A DNA stretch of 64,000 nucleotides. Origin: Escherichia coli. Lineage in GTDB: Bacteria > Pseudomonadota > Gammaproteobacteria > Enterobacterales > Enterobacteriaceae. Positions 4,929 through 13,574 of this stretch are shown here, piece by piece (positions within the stretch are counted from its first letter, which is position 1; every line of letters starts with the position of its first letter). The position numbers and the translations under genes were made by a program. Under the pieces are notes generated by a model that was not told the DNA's origin, did not search any database, and saw nothing but the letters and a program-made list of their open reading frames with translations. The DNA is taken from NCBI RefSeq assembly GCF_030384885.1, contig NZ_CP128613.1; one strand, written 5' to 3'.

Positions 4929-6038
4929 ATGAACGAACAATCCCAGGCCAAATCACCAGAAGCCTTGCGCGCAATGGTCGCCGGGACACTGGCCAATTTT
5001 CAGCACCCAACCCTGAAGCATAACCTCACCACGCTGAAAGCGTTGCACCATGTCGCCTGGATGGACGACACGTTGCATGTGGAACTGGTTATGCCATTCG
5101 TCTGGCATAGCGCGTTCGAAGAGTTAAAAGAGCAATGTAGCGCTGAACTGCTGCGCATCACCGGGGCGAAAGCTATCGACTGGAAACTGTCGCACAATAT
5201 CGCCACCTTAAAACGCGTGAAGAATCAGCCGGGAATTAACGGCGTGAAGAACATCATTGCGGTCAGCTCCGGTAAAGGCGGCGTGGGTAAATCCTCCACG
5301 GCGGTAAATCTGGCGCTGGCACTGGCGGCGGAAGGGGCGAAAGTCGGCATTCTGGACGCCGATATCTACGGCCCATCAATACCCACCATGCTGGGCGCAG
5401 AAAATCAGCGTCCAACTTCGCCGGACGGTACCCATATGGCACCGATTATGTCTCATGGACTGGCAACCAATTCAATTGGTTATCTGGTCACTGACGACAA
5501 TGCGATGGTGTGGCGTGGTCCGATGGCGAGCAAGGCGTTAATGCAGATGTTGCAGGAAACCTTGTGGCCGGATCTCGACTATCTGGTGCTTGATATGCCG
5601 CCAGGCACCGGTGACATTCAATTGACACTGGCACAAAACATTCCAGTAACTGGCGCGGTAGTGGTCACCACCCCGCAGGACATTGCGTTGATCGATGCGA
5701 AAAAAGGCATTGTGATGTTCGAGAAAGTCGAGGTTCCGGTGCTCGGTATTGTCGAGAACATGAGTGTGCATATTTGCAGTAACTGTGGTCACCATGAACC
5801 GATTTTCGGTACCGGTGGTGCAGAGAAACTGGCCGAGAAATACCACACGCAGTTGCTGGGGCAGATGCCGTTACACATTTCCTTACGTGAAGATCTCGAT
5901 AAAGGCACGCCAACAGTTATCAGCCGTCCGGAGAGCGAATTTACCGCTATCTACCGCCAGCTGGCTGACCGCGTTGCAGCCCAGCTTTATTGGCAGGGAG
6001 AAGTCATTCCTGGCGAGATTTCCTTCCGCGCGGTCTGA
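4929..6038 (+). CDS. apbC: Fe-S cluster carrier ATPase Mrp/ApbC
   Basis: Track ORF 4899..6038; P-loop GKGGVGKSS and CSNCG motif; start moved to MNEQSQAKSPEALRA. Divergent from metG as in K-12. Confidence 0.9.
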   Translation: MNEQSQAKSPEALRAMVAGTLANFQHPTLKHNLTTLKALHHVAWMDDTLHVELVMPFVWHSAFEELKEQCSAELLRITGAKAIDWKLSHNIATLKRVKNQPGINGVKNIIAVSSGKGGVGKSSTAVNLALALAAEGAKVGILDADIYGPSIPTMLGAENQRPTSPDGTHMAPIMSHGLATNSIGYLVTDDNAMVWRGPMASKALMQMLQETLWPDLDYLVLDMPPGTGDIQLTLAQNIPVTGAVVVTTPQDIALIDAKKGIVMFEKVEVPVLGIVENMSVHICSNCGHHEPIFGTGGAEKLAEKYHTQLLGQMPLHISLREDLDKGTPTVISRPESEFTAIYRQLADRVAAQLYWQGEVIPGEISFRAV

Positions 6039-6067
6039 CGCGTATTAACCTTTTTGGTTGTTTTTCA

Positions 6068-6109
6068 TACACCGCAGAGATGTTACATTGATGCGGTGTA
6101 TTTGCTTTT
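6068..6109 (+). terminator. putative rho-independent terminator after apbC
   Basis: Inverted repeat tacaccgca...tgcggtgta followed by tttgctttt. Confidence 0.45.
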
Positions 6110-6300
6110 GCCGCATTAATGAACACTTATTTAATGCTGCGAATATTCTGCGGACCTTCGTCCGAAACTCTATAAAGTCGATTGATCGTACAGGCAATGC
6201 ATCATTATCATCCTTCGTGGCTGTGTAGTGGATGTACAGCTATAGTTTGTTATGCACTCATTCTATCCAGGCATAACCTTTACTACAGGGATAACGTTCA

Positions 6301-6582
6301 ATGAATAAGTACTGGCTATCAGGAATTATTTTTCTTGCCTATGGAATGGCTTCTCCCGCGTTCTCTTCACAGACTGCCACATTAACGATTAATGGCAGGA
6401 TCAGTCCCCCAACATGCAGTATGGCTATGGTTAATGGTCAACCTCAACAGCATTGTGGTCAGTTAACGTATGATGTTGATACCCGTCATCAGGTTTCTTC
6501 GCCAGTCAAAGGTGTGACGACAGAAGTGGTTGTTGCAGGTAGTGATAGCAAACGTCGAATCGTGTTAAATCGCTACGATTAA
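6301..6582 (+). CDS. yehE: small secreted protein YehE
   Basis: 93-aa ORF with N-terminal signal-like sequence; position between mrp and the yeh fimbrial genes. Confidence 0.7.
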   Translation: MNKYWLSGIIFLAYGMASPAFSSQTATLTINGRISPPTCSMAMVNGQPQQHCGQLTYDVDTRHQVSSPVKGVTTEVVVAGSDSKRRIVLNRYD

Positions 6583-6613
6583 TTTGCCACCCTGGTTTTT
6601 TAAGCGGATTTAG

Positions 6614-6653
6614 AAAGCTGAAATCATTCGCGTGAATGATTTCAGCTTTTTTA
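6614..6653 (+). terminator. putative rho-independent terminator after yehE
   Basis: Stem agctgaaatcattc / gaatgatttcagct followed by a T6 run. Confidence 0.6.
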
Positions 6654-6877
6654 TTGATATTAATAATACCATTTAAAAAAATCTGCATTAATTAATAGAT
6701 GTGATAAATATTTAATATGCTTAAGTATTTGTTGTATTTATATTGCAATAGTTAATTTGTTTTAAATCAATAAAACAATATGTTTACATTGCGGCAACTT
6801 TTTTGATGTGAGAAATTTGTTTCCAAGAGATACAGACTCTTAACAACCAAAAAATAAATTTTATTAAGGAACATATT

Positions 6878-7420
6878 ATGAAACGTTCAATTATTGCTGC
6901 CGCTGTCTTTTCTTCTTTTTTTATGAGCGCTGGGGTATTTGCCGCAGACGTTGATACCGGAACATTAACCATTAAAGGGAATATTGCAGAATCTCCGTGT
7001 AAATTCGAAGCAGGTGGCGATTCAGTAAGTATTAATATGCCAACTGTACCAACCACTGTCTTTGAAGGTAAAGCTAAATACTCGACCTATGATGATGCAG
7101 TCGGTGTAACCAGCAGCATGTTAAAAATTAGCTGTCCGAAAGAAGTTGCTGGTGTAAAACTCTCGTTGATTACCAACGATAAAATAACCGGAAACGATAA
7201 GGCGATAGCCAGTAGCAACGATACCGTGGGGTACTATCTCTATTTAGGTGATAACAGTGATGTCCTGGATGTTTCTGCACCTTTTAACATTGAGAGTTAT
7301 AAAACAGCGGAAGGTCAATATGCTATTCCGTTTAAAGCAAAATACCTGAAGCTGACAGATAATTCAGTGCAATCAGATGATGTGTTATCTTCTCTGGTTA
7401 TGCGTGTGGCGCAGGATTAA
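6878..7420 (+). CDS. yehD: fimbrial major subunit-like protein
   Basis: 180 aa with signal peptide; first gene of a subunit-chaperone-usher-adhesin array; AT-rich upstream region. Confidence 0.85.
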   Translation: MKRSIIAAAVFSSFFMSAGVFAADVDTGTLTIKGNIAESPCKFEAGGDSVSINMPTVPTTVFEGKAKYSTYDDAVGVTSSMLKISCPKEVAGVKLSLITNDKITGNDKAIASSNDTVGYYLYLGDNSDVLDVSAPFNIESYKTAEGQYAIPFKAKYLKLTDNSVQSDDVLSSLVMRVAQD

Positions 7421-7500
7421 TAAATAAAATTTCAAATTTCTCCAGGTAATAAACATGGCCGCTATCCCCATGGCGGCCTTTTAATTTAAGAGGCATTAAG

Positions 7501-8175
7501 ATGAAAGGATTATTAGCTTTACTCATTTCTTCTATGGTCCTTCCTGCGCATGCCGGAATTGTTATCTACGGGACGCGCATTATTTACCCGGCAGAAAATA
7601 AAGAAGTGATGGTGCAGTTGATGAACCAGGGAAACCGTTCTTCGCTGCTGCAGGCGTGGATTGATGATGGCGATACGTCGTTACCACCTGAAAAAATTCA
7701 GGTTCCTTTCATGTTAACGCCACCAGTGGCAAAAATAGGGGCAAATTCCGGGCAGCAAGTAAAAATCAAAATTATGTCGAATAAACTGCCCACTAATAAA
7801 GAGAGCATTTTTTATCTGAATGTTCTGGATATTCCACCAAATAGTCCAGAGCAAGAGGGCAAGAATGCACTGAAATTTGCAATGCAAAACAGAATCAAAT
7901 TGTTTTACCGGCCTGCGGGTATTGCACCGGTAAATAAAGCGACATTTAAAAAGTTACTGGTAAATCGCAGTGGCAATGGATTGGTGATAAAAAATGACTC
8001 AGCAAATTGGGTAACGATTTCGGATGTCAAAGCTAATAATGTCAAAGTCAATTATGAAACTATTATGATTGCCCCCTTGGAAAGTCAGAGTATTAATGTC
8101 AAAAGTAATAATGCGAATAACTGGTATCTGACCATTATCGATGACCATGGCAACTATATTAGTGACAAAATTTAA
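7501..8175 (+). CDS. yehC: periplasmic fimbrial chaperone (PapD-like)
   Basis: 224 aa with signal peptide; operon position between subunit and usher. Confidence 0.85.
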   Translation: MKGLLALLISSMVLPAHAGIVIYGTRIIYPAENKEVMVQLMNQGNRSSLLQAWIDDGDTSLPPEKIQVPFMLTPPVAKIGANSGQQVKIKIMSNKLPTNKESIFYLNVLDIPPNSPEQEGKNALKFAMQNRIKLFYRPAGIAPVNKATFKKLLVNRSGNGLVIKNDSANWVTISDVKANNVKVNYETIMIAPLESQSINVKSNNANNWYLTIIDDHGNYISDKI

Positions 8176-8190
8176 TTGCAGGAGCTGCCT

Positions 8191-10671
8191 ATGTTGAGAA
8201 TGACCCCACTTGCATCAGCAATCGTAGCGTTATTGCTCGGCATTGAAGCTTATGCAGCTGAAGAAACCTTTGATACCCATTTTATGATAGGTGGAATGAA
8301 AGACCAGCAGGTTGCAAATATTCGTCTTGATGATAATCAACCCTTGCCGGGGCAGTATGACATCGATATTTATGTCAATAAGCAATGGCGCGGGAAATAT
8401 GAGATTATTGTTAAAGACAACCCGCAAGAAACATGTTTATCCAGGGAAATTATCAAGCGGTTAGGCATTAATACCGATAACTTTGCCAGCGGTAAGCAAT
8501 GTTTAACATTTGAGCAACTTGTTCACGGTGGGAGCTATACCTGGGATATCGGAGTTTTTCGTCTCGATTTCAGTGTACCGCAGGCGTGGGTGGAAGAACT
8601 GGAAAGTGGCTATGTTCCACCGGAAAACTGGGAGCGGGGTATTAATGCGTTTTATACCTCTTATTATGTGAGTCAGTATTACAGCGACTATAAAGCGTCG
8701 GGTAATAGCAAGAGTACATATGTACGTTTTAACAGCGGGTTAAATTTACTGGGGTGGCAACTGCATTCTGATGCCAGTTTCAGTAAAACAAATAGCAATC
8801 CAGGGGTGTGGAAAAGCAATACCCTGTATCTGGAACGTGGATTTGCCCAACTTCTCGGCACGCTTCGCGTGGGTGATATGTACACATCAAGCGATATTTT
8901 TGATTCTGTTCGCTTCAGCGGTGTGCGGTTGTTTCGTGATATGCAGATGTTGCCTAACTCGAAACAAAATTTTACTCCACGGGTGCAGGGGATTGCTCAG
9001 AGTAACGCGCTGGTAACTATTGAACAGAACGGTTTTGTGGTTTATCAGAAAGAGGTTCCTCCTGGCCCGTTTGCGATTACAGATTTGCAGTTGGCCGGTG
9101 GTGGAGCAGATCTTGATGTCAGCGTGAAAGAGGCGGACGGTTCGGTAACCACCTATCTGGTGCCTTATGCAGCAGTGCCGAATATGCTGCAACCCGGCGT
9201 GTCGAAATATGATTTTGCGGCAGGTCGTAGCCATATTGAAGGGGCGAGCAAACAAAGTGATTTTGTTCAGGCGGGTTATCAGTATGGTTTTAATAACTTA
9301 TTGACGCTGTATGGCGGATCGATGGTCGCGAATAATTATTACGCGTTCACTTTGGGGACTGGCTGGAATACACGCATTGGTGCCATTTCCGTCGATGCCA
9401 CGAAGTCGCATAGTAAACAAGACAACGGCGATGTGTTTGACGGGCAAAGTTATCAAATTGCCTACAACAAATTTGTGAGCCAAACGTCGACGCGTTTTGG
9501 TCTGGCGGCCTGGCGTTATTCGTCGCGTGATTACCGGACATTTAACGATCACGTTTGGGCAAACAATAAAGATAATTATCGCCGTGATGAAAACGATATC
9601 TATGACATTGCCGATTATTACCAGAACGATTTTGGCCGTAAAAATAGCTTTTCTGCCAATATGAGCCAGTCATTGCCAGAAGGCTGGGGTTCTGTGTCCT
9701 TAAGTACGTTATGGCGAGATTACTGGGGGCGTAGCGGCAGCAGTAAGGATTATCAGTTGAGTTATTCCAACAACCTGCGACGGATAAGCTATACCCTCGC
9801 AGCAAGCCAGGCTTATGACGAGAATCATCATGAAGAGAAACGTTTTAATATTTTTATATCGATTCCCTTTGATTGGGGTGATGACGTTACGACGCCTCGT
9901 CGGCAAATATATATGTCTAACTCAACGACATTTGATGATCAGGGTTTTGCCTCAAATAATACGGGATTATCGGGAACCGTTGGAAGCCGGGATCAATTTA
10001 ACTATGGGGTCAACCTGAGTCATCAGCATCAGGGAAATGAAACGACAGCTGGAGCGAATTTAACCTGGAACGCGCCGGTGGCAACGGTGAATGGCAGTTA
10101 TAGTCAGTCGAGTACTTATCGACAGGCTGGAGCCAGTCTTTCAGGGGGCATTGTCGCCTGGTCGGGTGGCGTTAATCTGGCGAACCGTCTTTCCGAAACG
10201 TTTGCTGTGATGAATGCGCCAGGAATTAAAGATGCTTATGTCAATGGGCAAAAATATCGCACAACAAACCGTAATGGAGTGGTGGTATACGACGGAATGA
10301 CACCTTATCGGGAAAATCACCTGATGCTGGATGTGTCGCAAAGCGATAGCGAAGCAGAATTACGTGGCAACCGGAACATTGCCGCCCCTTTTCGCGGCGC
10401 GGTTGTACTGGTTAATTTTGATACCGATCAGCGCAAGCCCTGGTTTATAAAAGCGTTAAGAGCGGATGGGCAACCATTAACGTTTGGTTATGAAGTCAAT
10501 GATATCCACGGTCACAATATTGGTGTTGTCGGTCAGGGAAGCCAGTTATTTATTCGCACTAATGATGTACCGCCATCGGTTAATGTGGCAATTGATAAAC
10601 AACAAGGGCTCTCATGCACAATCACCTTCGGTAAAGAGATTGATGAAAATAGGAACTATATTTGCCAGTAA
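8191..10671 (+). CDS. yehB: outer-membrane fimbrial usher
   Basis: Track ORF 8176..10671 (831 aa); start moved to MLRMTPLASAIVALLLG for the ~826-aa length I recall; size and position typical of a usher. Confidence 0.88.
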   Translation: MLRMTPLASAIVALLLGIEAYAAEETFDTHFMIGGMKDQQVANIRLDDNQPLPGQYDIDIYVNKQWRGKYEIIVKDNPQETCLSREIIKRLGINTDNFASGKQCLTFEQLVHGGSYTWDIGVFRLDFSVPQAWVEELESGYVPPENWERGINAFYTSYYVSQYYSDYKASGNSKSTYVRFNSGLNLLGWQLHSDASFSKTNSNPGVWKSNTLYLERGFAQLLGTLRVGDMYTSSDIFDSVRFSGVRLFRDMQMLPNSKQNFTPRVQGIAQSNALVTIEQNGFVVYQKEVPPGPFAITDLQLAGGGADLDVSVKEADGSVTTYLVPYAAVPNMLQPGVSKYDFAAGRSHIEGASKQSDFVQAGYQYGFNNLLTLYGGSMVANNYYAFTLGTGWNTRIGAISVDATKSHSKQDNGDVFDGQSYQIAYNKFVSQTSTRFGLAAWRYSSRDYRTFNDHVWANNKDNYRRDENDIYDIADYYQNDFGRKNSFSANMSQSLPEGWGSVSLSTLWRDYWGRSGSSKDYQLSYSNNLRRISYTLAASQAYDENHHEEKRFNIFISIPFDWGDDVTTPRRQIYMSNSTTFDDQGFASNNTGLSGTVGSRDQFNYGVNLSHQHQGNETTAGANLTWNAPVATVNGSYSQSSTYRQAGASLSGGIVAWSGGVNLANRLSETFAVMNAPGIKDAYVNGQKYRTTNRNGVVVYDGMTPYRENHLMLDVSQSDSEAELRGNRNIAAPFRGAVVLVNFDTDQRKPWFIKALRADGQPLTFGYEVNDIHGHNIGVVGQGSQLFIRTNDVPPSVNVAIDKQQGLSCTITFGKEIDENRNYICQ

Positions 10672-10686
10672 TAATCGGGTGGCTCT

Positions 10687-11721
10687 ATGAAAATTCGCAT
10701 AATGTTATTTATATTAATTATGATGGTAATGCCTGTGAGTTATGCAGCATGTTATGGAGAGTTATCTGCCCAGCATAATTTTGCTGTTCAGGGGGATTTT
10801 GCACTGACTCAAACACAAACGGCAACATATGAGCATAATTTTAATGATTCGTCATGCGTGAGTACAAATACTATCACCCCTATGAGCCCGTCGGATATTA
10901 TTGTTGGACTTTATAACGATACCATTAAATTAAATTTACATTTTGAATGGACCAATAAAAACAACATCACGTTGTCAAATAATCAGACCAGTTTCACCAA
11001 TGGTTATTCGGTAACGGTGACACCTGCGGCCAGTAATGCAAAAGTGAATGTTTCTGCGGGGGGCGGCGGTTCAGTGATGATTAATGGTGTTGCGACATTA
11101 TCCAGTGCTTCATCATCGACACGCGGGAGTGCTGCAGTACAATTTTTACTGTGTTTATTCGGTGGCAAGTCATGGGATGCATGTGTAAATAGCTACAGAA
11201 ATGCATTGGCACAAAATGCAGGTGTCTATTCCTTTAATCTGACATTGTCATACAACCCGATAACCACAACCTGCAAACCGGACGATTTATTAATTACTTT
11301 AGAGAGTATTCCCGTTTCACAATTACCAGCTACAGGTAACAAAGCAACAATAAATAGTAACAAAGGGGATATTGTTCTGCGTTGTAAAAACTTATTAGGT
11401 CAACAAAATCAAACATCACGGAAAATGCAGGTGTATTTATCAAGTTCTGACTTGTTAACCAACAGCAACACAATACTGAAAGGTGCGGAAGATAATGGCG
11501 TAGGATTTATTCTTGAAAGTAATGGTTCTCCAGTCACACTTTTAAATATCACTAACAGCAGTAAAGAATACACAAATTTAAAAGAAATTGCGGCAAAGTC
11601 AAAACTTACAGATACAACGGTTTCAATTCCGATAACTGCCAGTTACTACGTCTACGATACAAATAAAATTAAATCTGGCGCACTGGAGGCAACCGCATTA
11701 ATCAACGTGAAATACGACTAA
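10687..11721 (+). CDS. yehA: fimbrial adhesin-like protein
   Basis: 344 aa with signal peptide; last gene of the chaperone-usher operon. Confidence 0.8.
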   Translation: MKIRIMLFILIMMVMPVSYAACYGELSAQHNFAVQGDFALTQTQTATYEHNFNDSSCVSTNTITPMSPSDIIVGLYNDTIKLNLHFEWTNKNNITLSNNQTSFTNGYSVTVTPAASNAKVNVSAGGGGSVMINGVATLSSASSSTRGSAAVQFLLCLFGGKSWDACVNSYRNALAQNAGVYSFNLTLSYNPITTTCKPDDLLITLESIPVSQLPATGNKATINSNKGDIVLRCKNLLGQQNQTSRKMQVYLSSSDLLTNSNTILKGAEDNGVGFILESNGSPVTLLNITNSSKEYTNLKEIAAKSKLTDTTVSIPITASYYVYDTNKIKSGALEATALINVKYD

Positions 11722-11778
11722 TAACAAGCAAGACGAGCAAGTGGCTAATAATAAAAAATAACAAGGTGTCTGCATTTC

Positions 11779-11805
11779 CACCTCATGATGAGGGGGCTTT
11801 TTTTA
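11779..11805. terminator. putative bidirectional terminator between yehA and rcnB
   Basis: Short palindrome cctca-tga-tgagg followed by gggcttttttt, between convergent genes. Confidence 0.4.
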
Positions 11806-12141
11806 GCGATGATAAAAAATCTCACCATCGTAGGCTTTAATGATTTTACCGTCGGTGTCGCTGATCAACACGTACGCGCCACCCATATAGGTCCAGTGCG
11901 TCCCGGCATCAGGCGCGGGCAGGTTACGTAACTGCCACTGCTTAATGTTGTACTCATCGGTGCGGTACATCTCTGGGACGGTATCGCCTGGTTTGAAATG
12001 CTTAAAGTCAGCAATGAAACTGCTTAACTCATACTTAGAAATTCCCGAGGTATTGGTCGAACCCGCGGTGGCTGGTGCGGCCCAGGCGGCACTGGTAACC
12101 AGCAAAAGCACACCCAGCAACATCTTATTTTTAATGGTCAT
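11803..12141 (-). CDS. rcnB: periplasmic nickel/cobalt homeostasis protein RcnB (YohN)
   Basis: Track ORF 11803..12321; start moved to internal MTIKNKMLLGVLLLVTSAAWA (signal peptide), giving 112 aa. Confidence 0.8.
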   Translation of the reverse strand: MTIKNKMLLGVLLLVTSAAWAAPATAGSTNTSGISKYELSSFIADFKHFKPGDTVPEMYRTDEYNIKQWQLRNLPAPDAGTHWTYMGGAYVLISDTDGKIIKAYDGEIFYHR

Positions 12142-12359
12142 AAACTCTCCACTTTGGGGATCTGTAATATCAGTCGCATATCTTTCCTGCCATACAATAT
12201 AACTGACAAGCGATATTTTGTTAGTGATCCCATGATTTCGTAAAAAGTGTAAATGAAAGGATGCCCTAAAAGCATCCTTAGCGAGCAGAGAGCCAGCGGA
12301 AATAGCTGATTTAAGAATCATCCTGGGCTGAAGATAACATGCAAGCCTAAAGGATTGAG

Positions 12360-13181
12360 TTATCGTATTATGCCCATAAAGCCATGTACGCCCATATACA
12401 CACCAACTAAGCCAATCAACAGACTGGAAAAATAGGGGGCGCGTTTAGCGAGAGTGTTAAATCCGCTCCAGCGTTTTGCGACCTGCTGAACGCTGATTGC
12501 TGCGCCAATGCCTACGGTGACCAGCGTTAACGCAAGGCCAATGCTGAAACTGACGACCAGTGTTGCGCCCAGTGTCAGGGCTTTCAACTGAATGCAAATC
12601 AACAGCACGGTAATTGCTGCCGGGCAGGGGATAAGGCCACCGGTTAAGCCAAATAACAAAATTTGCCAGTTGGTGACCTCTCTACCATCGAAGCGTCGTT
12701 TAATGTCATTGGCATGGGCTCGTGCATGAGCATCCTGATACTCCCCATGTTCGTGATGGTGATGATGTCCATGGTCGTGGTGATCTTCGTGATCGTGATG
12801 ATACTCATGATCATGCCCGTGCATATTCTCCAGCCAGTTGCGTTCGCCGCGCCAGGTACGCCAGAACATCCAGAACGCGGTGCCAATAATGATCACCGCG
12901 GAAATCAACTGGAGCCACGGTTCTGCAGATTGAGCAGTAAAACGTTTGCTGATCACCATCCCGCCAAAGGCAATCAACCAGACCACCGCGGTATGCGAAA
13001 TGGTTGCTGCCAGTCCGAGCATCACCGCCTGTTTAATGGTGCCTTTGATGGCGATGATAAACGCCGCCATCATCGTTTTTGAGTGCCCTGGTTCCAGGCC
13101 ATGAAGCGCACCAAGTAAGATGGCGCTGGGGATGAAGAACCAGGCATTTCCTTGCTGAAGAAGAGTGGTAAATTCGGTCAT
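12360..13181 (-). CDS. rcnA: nickel/cobalt efflux transporter RcnA
   Basis: 273-aa membrane protein with a His-rich loop (HGHDHEYHHDHEDHHDHGHHHHHEHGEY). Confidence 0.9.
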   Translation of the reverse strand: MTEFTTLLQQGNAWFFIPSAILLGALHGLEPGHSKTMMAAFIIAIKGTIKQAVMLGLAATISHTAVVWLIAFGGMVISKRFTAQSAEPWLQLISAVIIIGTAFWMFWRTWRGERNWLENMHGHDHEYHHDHEDHHDHGHHHHHEHGEYQDAHARAHANDIKRRFDGREVTNWQILLFGLTGGLIPCPAAITVLLICIQLKALTLGATLVVSFSIGLALTLVTVGIGAAISVQQVAKRWSGFNTLAKRAPYFSSLLIGLVGVYMGVHGFMGIIR

Positions 13182-13218
13182 GATAATAATTCTTAGTATT
13201 AATTCGGCAATCCGATTC

Positions 13219-13253
13219 TACTCCCCCCCAGTACCTGATACTACCCCCCAGTA
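13219..13253. promoter_or_regulatory. two RcnR operator sites in the rcnR-rcnA divergent promoter
   Basis: Directly seen: TACT-C7-AGTA at 13219..13233 and TACT-A-C6-AGTA at 13239..13253, matching the TACT-G6-N-AGTA operator on the other strand. Confidence 0.8.
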
Positions 13254-13301
13254 GAATAATAGTGCTATGATTTTTCATGTTCTTGTTAACCAGGTGTTGC
13301 C

Positions 13302-13574
13302 ATGTCTCATACAATCCGTGATAAACAGAAACTGAAAGCGCGTGCCAGTAAGATTCAGGGTCAGGTCGTGGCGCTCAAGAAAATGCTCGACGAGCCGCAC
13401 GAATGCGCAGCTGTTCTACAACAGATTGCTGCTATCCGTGGCGCGGTAAACGGCCTGATGCGCGAAGTGATTAAGGGGCATCTGACGGAACACATCGTTC
13501 ACCAGGGGGATGAGCTAAAACGTGAAGAAGATCTGGATGTCGTTCTGAAGGTGTTGGATTCATATATCAAATAA
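13302..13574 (+). CDS. rcnR: Ni/Co-responsive repressor RcnR (CsoR/RcnR family)
   Basis: 90 aa; divergent from rcnA; operator sites in the shared intergenic region. Confidence 0.9.

Follow-up and report, generated by a model that had tools for sequence, protein, structure and literature searches.

An intact Yeh pilus operon

We analyzed a 64-kb stretch of Escherichia coli DNA (the window), an ordinary piece of core chromosome spanning metG, yeh, rcn, thiMD, gat, mdtABCD-baeSR and wza. Positions 6654-11721 of the window are an intact K-12/UTI89-type allele of the Yeh chaperone-usher pilus operon, arranged in the order yehD-yehC-yehB-yehA. All features described here lie on the + strand unless stated otherwise. 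The operon comprises yehD (6878-7420), encoding the major pilus subunit of 180 amino acids (aa), yehC (7501-8175), encoding the 224-aa periplasmic chaperone, yehB (8191-10671; the open frame begins at TTG 8176), encoding the 826-aa outer-membrane usher, and yehA (10687-11721), encoding the 344-aa two-domain tip adhesin. Gene coordinates were taken from a mechanical list of open reading frames (ORFs) and from the RefSeq annotation of E. coli 2020CK-00188, a 99.9% identical genome. The operon is flanked by apbC (mrp) and rcnB, an arrangement shared with K-12, Salmonella (Stc) and Citrobacter. Given the 224-aa start of yehC, the four gene lengths equal those of K-12 b2111-b2108, and none of the four frames contains an internal stop. 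A preliminary description of this region had presented it as an intact subunit-chaperone-usher-adhesin operon; the uninterrupted frames confirm its intactness, and Pfam analysis and a match of the adhesin to PDB entry 9N4G confirm the four roles.

Pfam searches assigned YehD to the Fimbrial family (27.0 bits, cut-off 25.6), detected both immunoglobulin (Ig)-like domains of YehC (PapD_N, E 1.4e-41; PapD_C, E 2.8e-08) and identified PapC_N, Usher (E 1.6e-195, model positions 1-549 of 549) and PapC_C in YehB. The YehC sequence carries a GTR(I)IY arginine motif and a RIKLFYRP lysine motif, which we take to correspond to R8 and K112 of PapD. Signal peptides are visible in the YehD and YehA sequences, completing the features of a classical chaperone-usher system: a PapD-like chaperone, a full usher, secreted Fimbrial-domain pilins and a two-domain tip adhesin. 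The 826 codons of yehB run uninterrupted and match the full Usher model; the preliminary description had named usher frameshifts as the finding that would overturn it, and there are none. The 97.8% identity of the usher to K-12 YehB suggests that it belongs to the gamma4 usher clade, to which Yeh has been assigned (PMC12778044). For yehC, the 239-aa start annotated in K-12 falls within the hairpin that follows yehD (see below), and one extra C in the hairpin loop of the window places that start out of frame here, so that the 224-aa start is likely the true one.

The yeh genes are 96-97% identical in DNA to those of K-12 (~3-4% nucleotide divergence), corresponding to amino acid identities of 98.9% for YehD, 97.8% for YehC, 97.8% for YehB and 95.4% for YehA. 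Ratios of nonsynonymous to synonymous substitution rates (dN/dS, Nei-Gojobori) against K-12 were 0.04 for yehD, 0.07 for yehC, 0.08 for yehB and 0.19 for yehA, indicating that the operon is under purifying selection and not decaying. A 6.4-kb query (6000-12400) matched 5,425 of 5,426 complete RefSeq E. coli genomes, at a median of one place per genome and a maximum of three, with an identity of at least 99% over the 6.4 kb in only three of the 5,425. In the neighboring apbC gene, 4.3% of bases differ from K-12 and every change is synonymous. This divergence, together with the scarcity of near-identical loci, suggests that the window derives from a sparsely sampled E. coli lineage.

The tip adhesin and its probable ligand

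YehA consists of a signal peptide (10687-10746), a receptor-binding domain (10747-11265) and a pilin domain (11266-11718). Residues 184-344 match Pfam Fimbrial with 80.6 bits. Comparison of YehA with PDB sequences returned 9N4G, 9N4H and 9N4I, all named "YehD protein", over residues 21-193 with an E-value of 3e-105, and 166 of the 173 residues of the receptor-binding domain (96%) are identical to 9N4G. The structures originate from Tamadonfar et al. (Sci Adv 2026; PMC12778044), and their name reflects an inverted nomenclature: UTI89 yehABCD corresponds to K-12 yehDCBA, so that the UTI89 YehD protein is the K-12 YehA adhesin and UTI89 "yehA" is the major subunit gene, i.e. K-12 yehD. According to that study, the receptor-binding domain is a β jelly-roll bearing a hinged, two-helix (alpha-helical) flap, which is kept closed by the packing of W143 on I51, V102 and I112. 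The UTI89 domain binds pectin and pectic galactan and stains fibrous luminal material of the mouse colon, mutants with an opened flap are better binders, and deletion of yeh reduces gut colonization by ~1.6- to 3.9-fold in a UTI89 strain without the fim operon (PMC12778044). The preliminary description had considered the specificity of the adhesin unknown, a view that is outdated given that a 96%-identical domain binds pectin.

The seven differences from UTI89 to the window are S4G, V8A, L12F, V13A, M25T, S85N and L138F. Five of them fall in the first 25 residues of the domain, and of the other two, S85N and L138F, the latter is located in the flap, between C136 and W143. All residues that the study singles out (C2, C37, S49, I51, V102, I112, N113, W143, Y150, R151, S162 and N164) are kept, and further cysteines are present at 136 and 146. 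By sequence, the window adhesin is of the Yeh type, with the flap domain, the cysteines of two disulfides, W143 and the S49/Y150 pocket. By extrapolation from the UTI89 domain, it would also bind pectin.

An adhesin domain of the Yeh type, defined by a DNA identity of at least 90%, was found in ~4,600 of the 5,426 complete genomes (~85%). The published prevalence is "just under one-half" of ~88,000 genomes (PMC12778044), and the discrepancy likely reflects a difference in dataset or threshold.

A conserved core with a predicted promoter in the AT-rich upstream region

The yehE-yehD intergenic stretch at 6654-6877 (224 bp), the regulatory region of the operon, has a G+C content of 21.0% compared to a window mean of 50.3%. 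This is the lowest value in the 64 kb: just 0.034% of 224-bp windows have so low a content, and no other region has a 224-bp G+C content of 27% or less. The strong AT-richness that the preliminary description had noted for ~220 bp upstream of yehD is thus well founded. The stretch starts directly past the intrinsic terminator of yehE (6612-6651), which consists of an 18-bp stem followed by a T-run and folds at -24 kcal/mol (z -5.7), a stability reached by 0 of 200 shuffled sequences. Its consensus over 17 loci from four genera contains 13 pairs, six of them with compensatory double changes. The conserved, covarying hairpin and the T-run indicate that yehE has its own terminator. An Rfam search of 6000-12400 by E-value gave a spurious microRNA on this hairpin as its only match, which we rejected. 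The whole yehE-yehD intergenic region (6583-6877; 295 bp) is 89.8% identical to its K-12 counterpart.

To compare this region across genera, we retrieved 80 loci that code for relatives of YehC; 26 of these contributed 212 bp around the yehD start to an alignment. In Salmonella, Citrobacter and Superficieibacter, a 66-bp core (6753-6818) retains 77-91% identity, compared to 49-59% for the flanking intergenic DNA and mostly 30-39% amino acid identity for the adjacent major subunit across those genera. The conservation of the core extends to Klebsiella spallanzanii. Within the O157:H7 locus, which is of the Yhl type, the promoter core is 97% identical. Of 5,325 records that matched a 101-bp query containing the core (6745-6845), 5,313 had an identity of 95% or more; nearly all genomes have a single copy, and none has more than two. 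The same query matched 11 places on plasmids, and 10 records in the search were only 60-80% identical; the plasmid matches hint at plasmid-borne Yeh-like operons.

The core contains a predicted sigma-70 promoter of yehD (6789-6817), composed of a -35 element TTGCGG (6789-6794), a 17-bp spacer with an extended -10 TG (6809-6810) and a -10 hexamer GAAATT (6812-6817). In the 26-sequence alignment, no or almost no variation is seen at TTG (6789-6791), TG (6809-6810), A6813 and T6816-6817, and in the GAAATT hexamer the conserved positions are the second and the last. Because extended -10 promoters depend most on these bases, we infer that 6789-6817 is the yehD promoter, with a predicted start at ~6825 and a 5′ untranslated region (5′ UTR) of ~53 nucleotides. 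The conserved A/T-rich segment upstream of it (6753-6788) would serve as an upstream element or as a site for a factor. A motif of the form GTTTACATTGCGG(C/T)AAC recalls OmpR/PhoP half-sites loosely; we do not claim it as such because the spacing misfits. A scan with the promoter consensus found fewer sites than in shuffled sequences and, within 6654-6877, a single poor site at 6654-6682.

RNAalifold predicted zero pairs for the 26 aligned upstream regions, which speaks against a structured RNA in the conserved core. A possible 5-bp hairpin (6825-6841) at the predicted mRNA 5′ end is weak: 80% of cells were paired compared to 76% in shuffles and ~50% in slid controls, and it is absent from the RNAalifold prediction. 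The Shine-Dalgarno sequence AAGGAAC (6866-6872), in which AAGGAA (6866-6871) is almost invariant, includes a GGA motif that, by analogy, is a probable CsrA site.

Between yehD and yehC lies a further hairpin (7457-7478) with a 9-bp GC-rich stem followed by UUUUAAUUU, which folds at -15.7 kcal/mol. A GC-rich hairpin of 9-13 bp occupies the position after the subunit gene in all 12 family loci that were folded, and the sequences of these hairpins are unrelated. In pap and fim, the major subunit is kept in excess by a hairpin that follows its gene. By analogy, the post-yehD hairpin is likely an attenuator or an mRNA stabilizer, acting through partial termination or 3′ stabilization. Downstream of the operon, a hairpin with a T-run between the convergent yehA and rcnB genes (11781-11802) was found by pattern match and may be a weak terminator; it folds no better than shuffled sequences (z -0.4 on the + strand and -1.9 on the - strand).

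Control of expression in other strains

Expression of the operon has been studied mainly in K-12 and in enterohemorrhagic E. coli (EHEC). In K-12, yehDCBA is H-NS-bound in two chromatin immunoprecipitation (ChIP) datasets, those of Kahramanoglou and Oshima, and is called cryptic, as stated in PMC5797941. Over-production of SlyA raises its expression 3.6-fold (PMC5797941). In the same paper, Korea et al. 2010 is cited for the repression of yeh by H-NS and for the finding that constitutive yeh expression yields functional fimbriae and more biofilm on abiotic surfaces. Moreover, yehEDCBA lies within a static, silenced extended protein-occupancy domain (bioRxiv 10.1101/2024.06.20.599902). The yeh locus of EHEC produces one transcript from its native promoter, ethanolamine raises YehD, and CsrA binds the yehD 5′ UTR in a GG-dependent manner (PMC11287998).

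The Yhl, Stc, Fim and Pap systems

A sister system is the Yhl (Yeh-like) pilus of phylogroup E / O157:H7, which shares with Yeh the apbC-rcnB site, the four-gene layout, a yehE homologue upstream, the promoter core and an adhesin fold with a flap. DNA identity between O157:H7 and the window rises from 75% for yehE to 80% for yehD, 84% for yehC and 87% for yehB and then falls to 54% for yehA (33% at the amino acid level), while the flanking apbC and rcnB genes are 97% identical. The adhesin domain of O157:H7 is 100% identical to PDB 8V9V, the Yhl adhesin, which binds colonic mucosa and not pectin (PMC12778044). The O157:H7 usher at the yeh site is annotated with an internal stop. In the genomes inspected, Yeh and Yhl replace each other at a single locus. 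Mosaics occur in both directions: in one of them (L032), yehE and the usher are Yeh-like and the adhesin is of the Yhl type, and the loci of E. whittamii (L007) and E. albertii (L009) combine an O157-like backbone with a Yeh-type adhesin.

In Salmonella, Stc (stcABCD) is orthologous by position, with a chaperone 58-71% and an usher 67-81% identical to those of Yeh, and its loci also carry the yehE homologue, the yehE terminator and the promoter core. Its major subunit, however, reaches just 33-35% identity, and a tblastn search of the two Salmonella loci detected no YehA-like adhesin. Wurpel et al. (2013) likewise described Stc as the positional orthologue of Yeh, which they found to be core-associated and intact in 92% of strains (PMC3559732).

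With the type 1 (Fim) and P (Pap) pili, the models for chaperone-usher systems, Yeh shares a PapD-like chaperone, a PapC-like usher, donor-strand assembly, a two-domain tip adhesin and a stem-loop 3′ of the major subunit gene. Unlike them, it is a minimal system of four genes that lacks adaptor and terminator subunits, and its adhesin has an alpha-helical flap that is unseen in FimH and PapG. Neither an invertible switch nor a dedicated regulator gene is annotated within the operon or beside it.

Proposed function and competing explanations

From family knowledge, YehD and YehA would be exported to the periplasm, where the PapD-like YehC would hold them through donor-strand complementation, and the YehB usher would polymerize them by donor-strand exchange into a YehD fiber with YehA at its tip. 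The YehA domain would bind pectin, so that the pilus could tether cells to plant fiber in the gut lumen and thereby confer a modest colonization advantage. Transcription most likely starts from the weak extended -10 promoter within the 21%-G+C region. H-NS occupancy of this region, as seen in K-12, would leave the operon nearly silent in laboratory culture; SlyA may antagonize this repression, and the ribosome-binding site with its GGA is probably where CsrA acts. The post-yehD hairpin probably keeps yehD mRNA in excess of the chaperone, usher and adhesin mRNA. We assign a probability of roughly 0.88 to this account of a Yeh pilus operon as a whole, including its identity, assembly, pectin ligand and regulation.

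Several observations weigh against parts of this account. The promoter hexamers are weak, and the consensus scan missed 6789-6817. Seven of the 173 residues of the receptor-binding domain differ from UTI89, and with L138F lying between C136 and W143 in the flap, the affinity for pectin could differ. In the case of H-NS, a motif scan showed no enrichment in 6654-6877 but was uninformative: the 10-bp high-affinity motif TCGATAAATT, allowing up to two mismatches, gave 89 matches in the whole window compared to 69 expected, and only one of these falls inside the stretch. Loss of protein occupancy alone fails to induce K-12 yehDCBA (bioRxiv 10.1101/2024.06.20.599902), suggesting that removal of H-NS may be insufficient. 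The CsrA data derive from the divergent, Yhl-type locus of EHEC, and both the expression and the H-NS occupancy of the present strain are extrapolated from other strains. The preliminary description had proposed an H-NS-silenced, cryptic system. The K-12 literature supports this for K-12 only, and the native transcription and CsrA control in EHEC, along with the occupancy result, suggest that AT-richness and H-NS are not the whole story.

In a different view of regulation, expression is limited mainly by the need for a specific activator and/or by post-transcriptional control at the conserved sequence rather than by H-NS coating. Conservation of the 66-bp core greatly exceeds that of the neighboring sequence, both between genera and between the Yeh and Yhl types, loss of protein occupancy occurs without yehDCBA induction, and expression is raised by CsrA and ethanolamine in EHEC (PMC11287998) and by over-production of SlyA in K-12 (PMC5797941). 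However, a core promoter with an A/T-rich upstream element explains the invariant bases well enough, no transcription-factor site was identified in the core, and the repression by H-NS ascribed to Korea et al. 2010 in PMC5797941 points the other way. We regard this view as possible but less likely than not; it and control by H-NS can both be true. Still more doubtful is the proposal that a five-gene operon, yehEDCBA, begins with yehE. The two genes have the same orientation, yehE being 295 bp upstream of yehD; yehE is co-inherited with the operon, including at three loci whose flanks lack both apbC and rcnB; and a preprint uses the name yehEDCBA (bioRxiv 10.1101/2024.06.20.599902).

Two further explanations concern the identity and the fate of the locus. 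A decaying relic, intact by chance, unused and heading toward pseudogenes, would agree with the cryptic label in K-12 (PMC5797941), with IS1 insertions at the locus in some genomes (H12, H21), with the internal stop in the O157:H7 usher and with the Citrobacter CFNIH2 locus (L004), where no usher gene is called at 10868-13370 and tblastn recovers 624 of 826 residues of a probably disrupted usher. We nevertheless consider it very unlikely in view of the dN/dS values of 0.04-0.19 across all four genes, the presence of the Yeh-type adhesin in ~85% of complete genomes and the retention of the locus across genera; furthermore, constitutive yeh yields functional fimbriae in K-12, according to PMC5797941, and its deletion in UTI89 lowers gut colonization (PMC12778044). 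That the window locus is instead the mucosa-binding Yhl pilus has next to no probability. The apbC-rcnB position alone cannot separate the two, as Yhl holds the identical site in O157:H7 with an adhesin 100% identical to 8V9V, but the window adhesin is 96% identical to 9N4G, gave no 8V9V match and is only 33% identical to the O157:H7 adhesin, and on these grounds we rejected the Yhl identity.

With the Yeh identity retained, the operon carries little weight as a discovery. It is a common, core-associated operon of E. coli that has been annotated in K-12 and genetically studied since 2010, and a crystal structure, a ligand (pectin) and an in vivo phenotype have been available for its adhesin since January 2026; the operon is thus already known and recently well characterized. 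The useful result is a corrected record, in which the adhesin has a known specificity, K-12 and UTI89 use inverted gene names and O157:H7 carries Yhl at the same site. The promoter core, the post-yehD hairpin and the co-inherited yehE with its terminator could guide work on how Yeh is switched on.

The co-inherited yehE gene

Outside the originally described region, yehE (6301-6582) encodes a secreted protein of 93 aa that matches Pfam DUF2574 (E 1.4e-51), a very small family with 31 representative clusters among 1.8 billion proteins. A literature search for yehE and DUF2574 gave unrelated papers only. The dN/dS of yehE against K-12 is 0.24, indicating that the gene is maintained. Nearly all loci flanked by apbC have a yehE homologue directly upstream of a yehD-like gene, as do L012 (where it is inverted), L015 and L017, which have neither apbC nor rcnB within 6-kb flanks. 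The more distant paralogous loci L025, L027, L030, L033 and L034 lack it, as does C. sedlakii L026. The divergence of yehE between the Yeh and Yhl types goes along with that of the operon. A 1,980-bp contig labeled as a Flavobacterium psychrophilum metagenome-assembled genome (L018; QFQM01000522.1) contains a Citrobacter-like yehE-yehD-yehC and is almost certainly a mis-binned enterobacterial contig.

The first 42 residues of YehE align to the N-terminus of the YehD family (hhalign probability 97%, E 9e-11). The aligned part covers the signal peptide, a TATLTINGR... segment and the first cysteine, and the remainder is unaligned. The secreted part spans ~70 residues and ends in a pilin-like ...RYD. 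An AlphaFold model of YehE (predicted local distance difference test, pLDDT, 70; five strands) has no significant structural neighbor, and neither an Ig-like pilin fold nor a Pfam Fimbrial domain was found. Judging by alignment and model, the N-terminus of YehE is pilin-derived, yet YehE is not a pilin by the tests run. Speculatively, and with low probability, YehE, whose N-terminus is homologous to the donor-strand region of pilins, might cap or modulate assembly of the Yeh fiber via donor-strand exchange while 6753-6788 binds a dedicated activator, which would explain why the operon stays off when nucleoid proteins are removed.

Flanking genes

The neighbors of the operon were located from the ORF list and the RefSeq annotation: apbC (4929-6038) upstream and, on the - strand, rcnB (11803-12141) and rcnA (12360-13181) downstream. 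The length of rcnA, whose product has a His-rich segment, varies by strain, from 822 bp here to 825 bp in K-12 and 852 bp in O157:H7.

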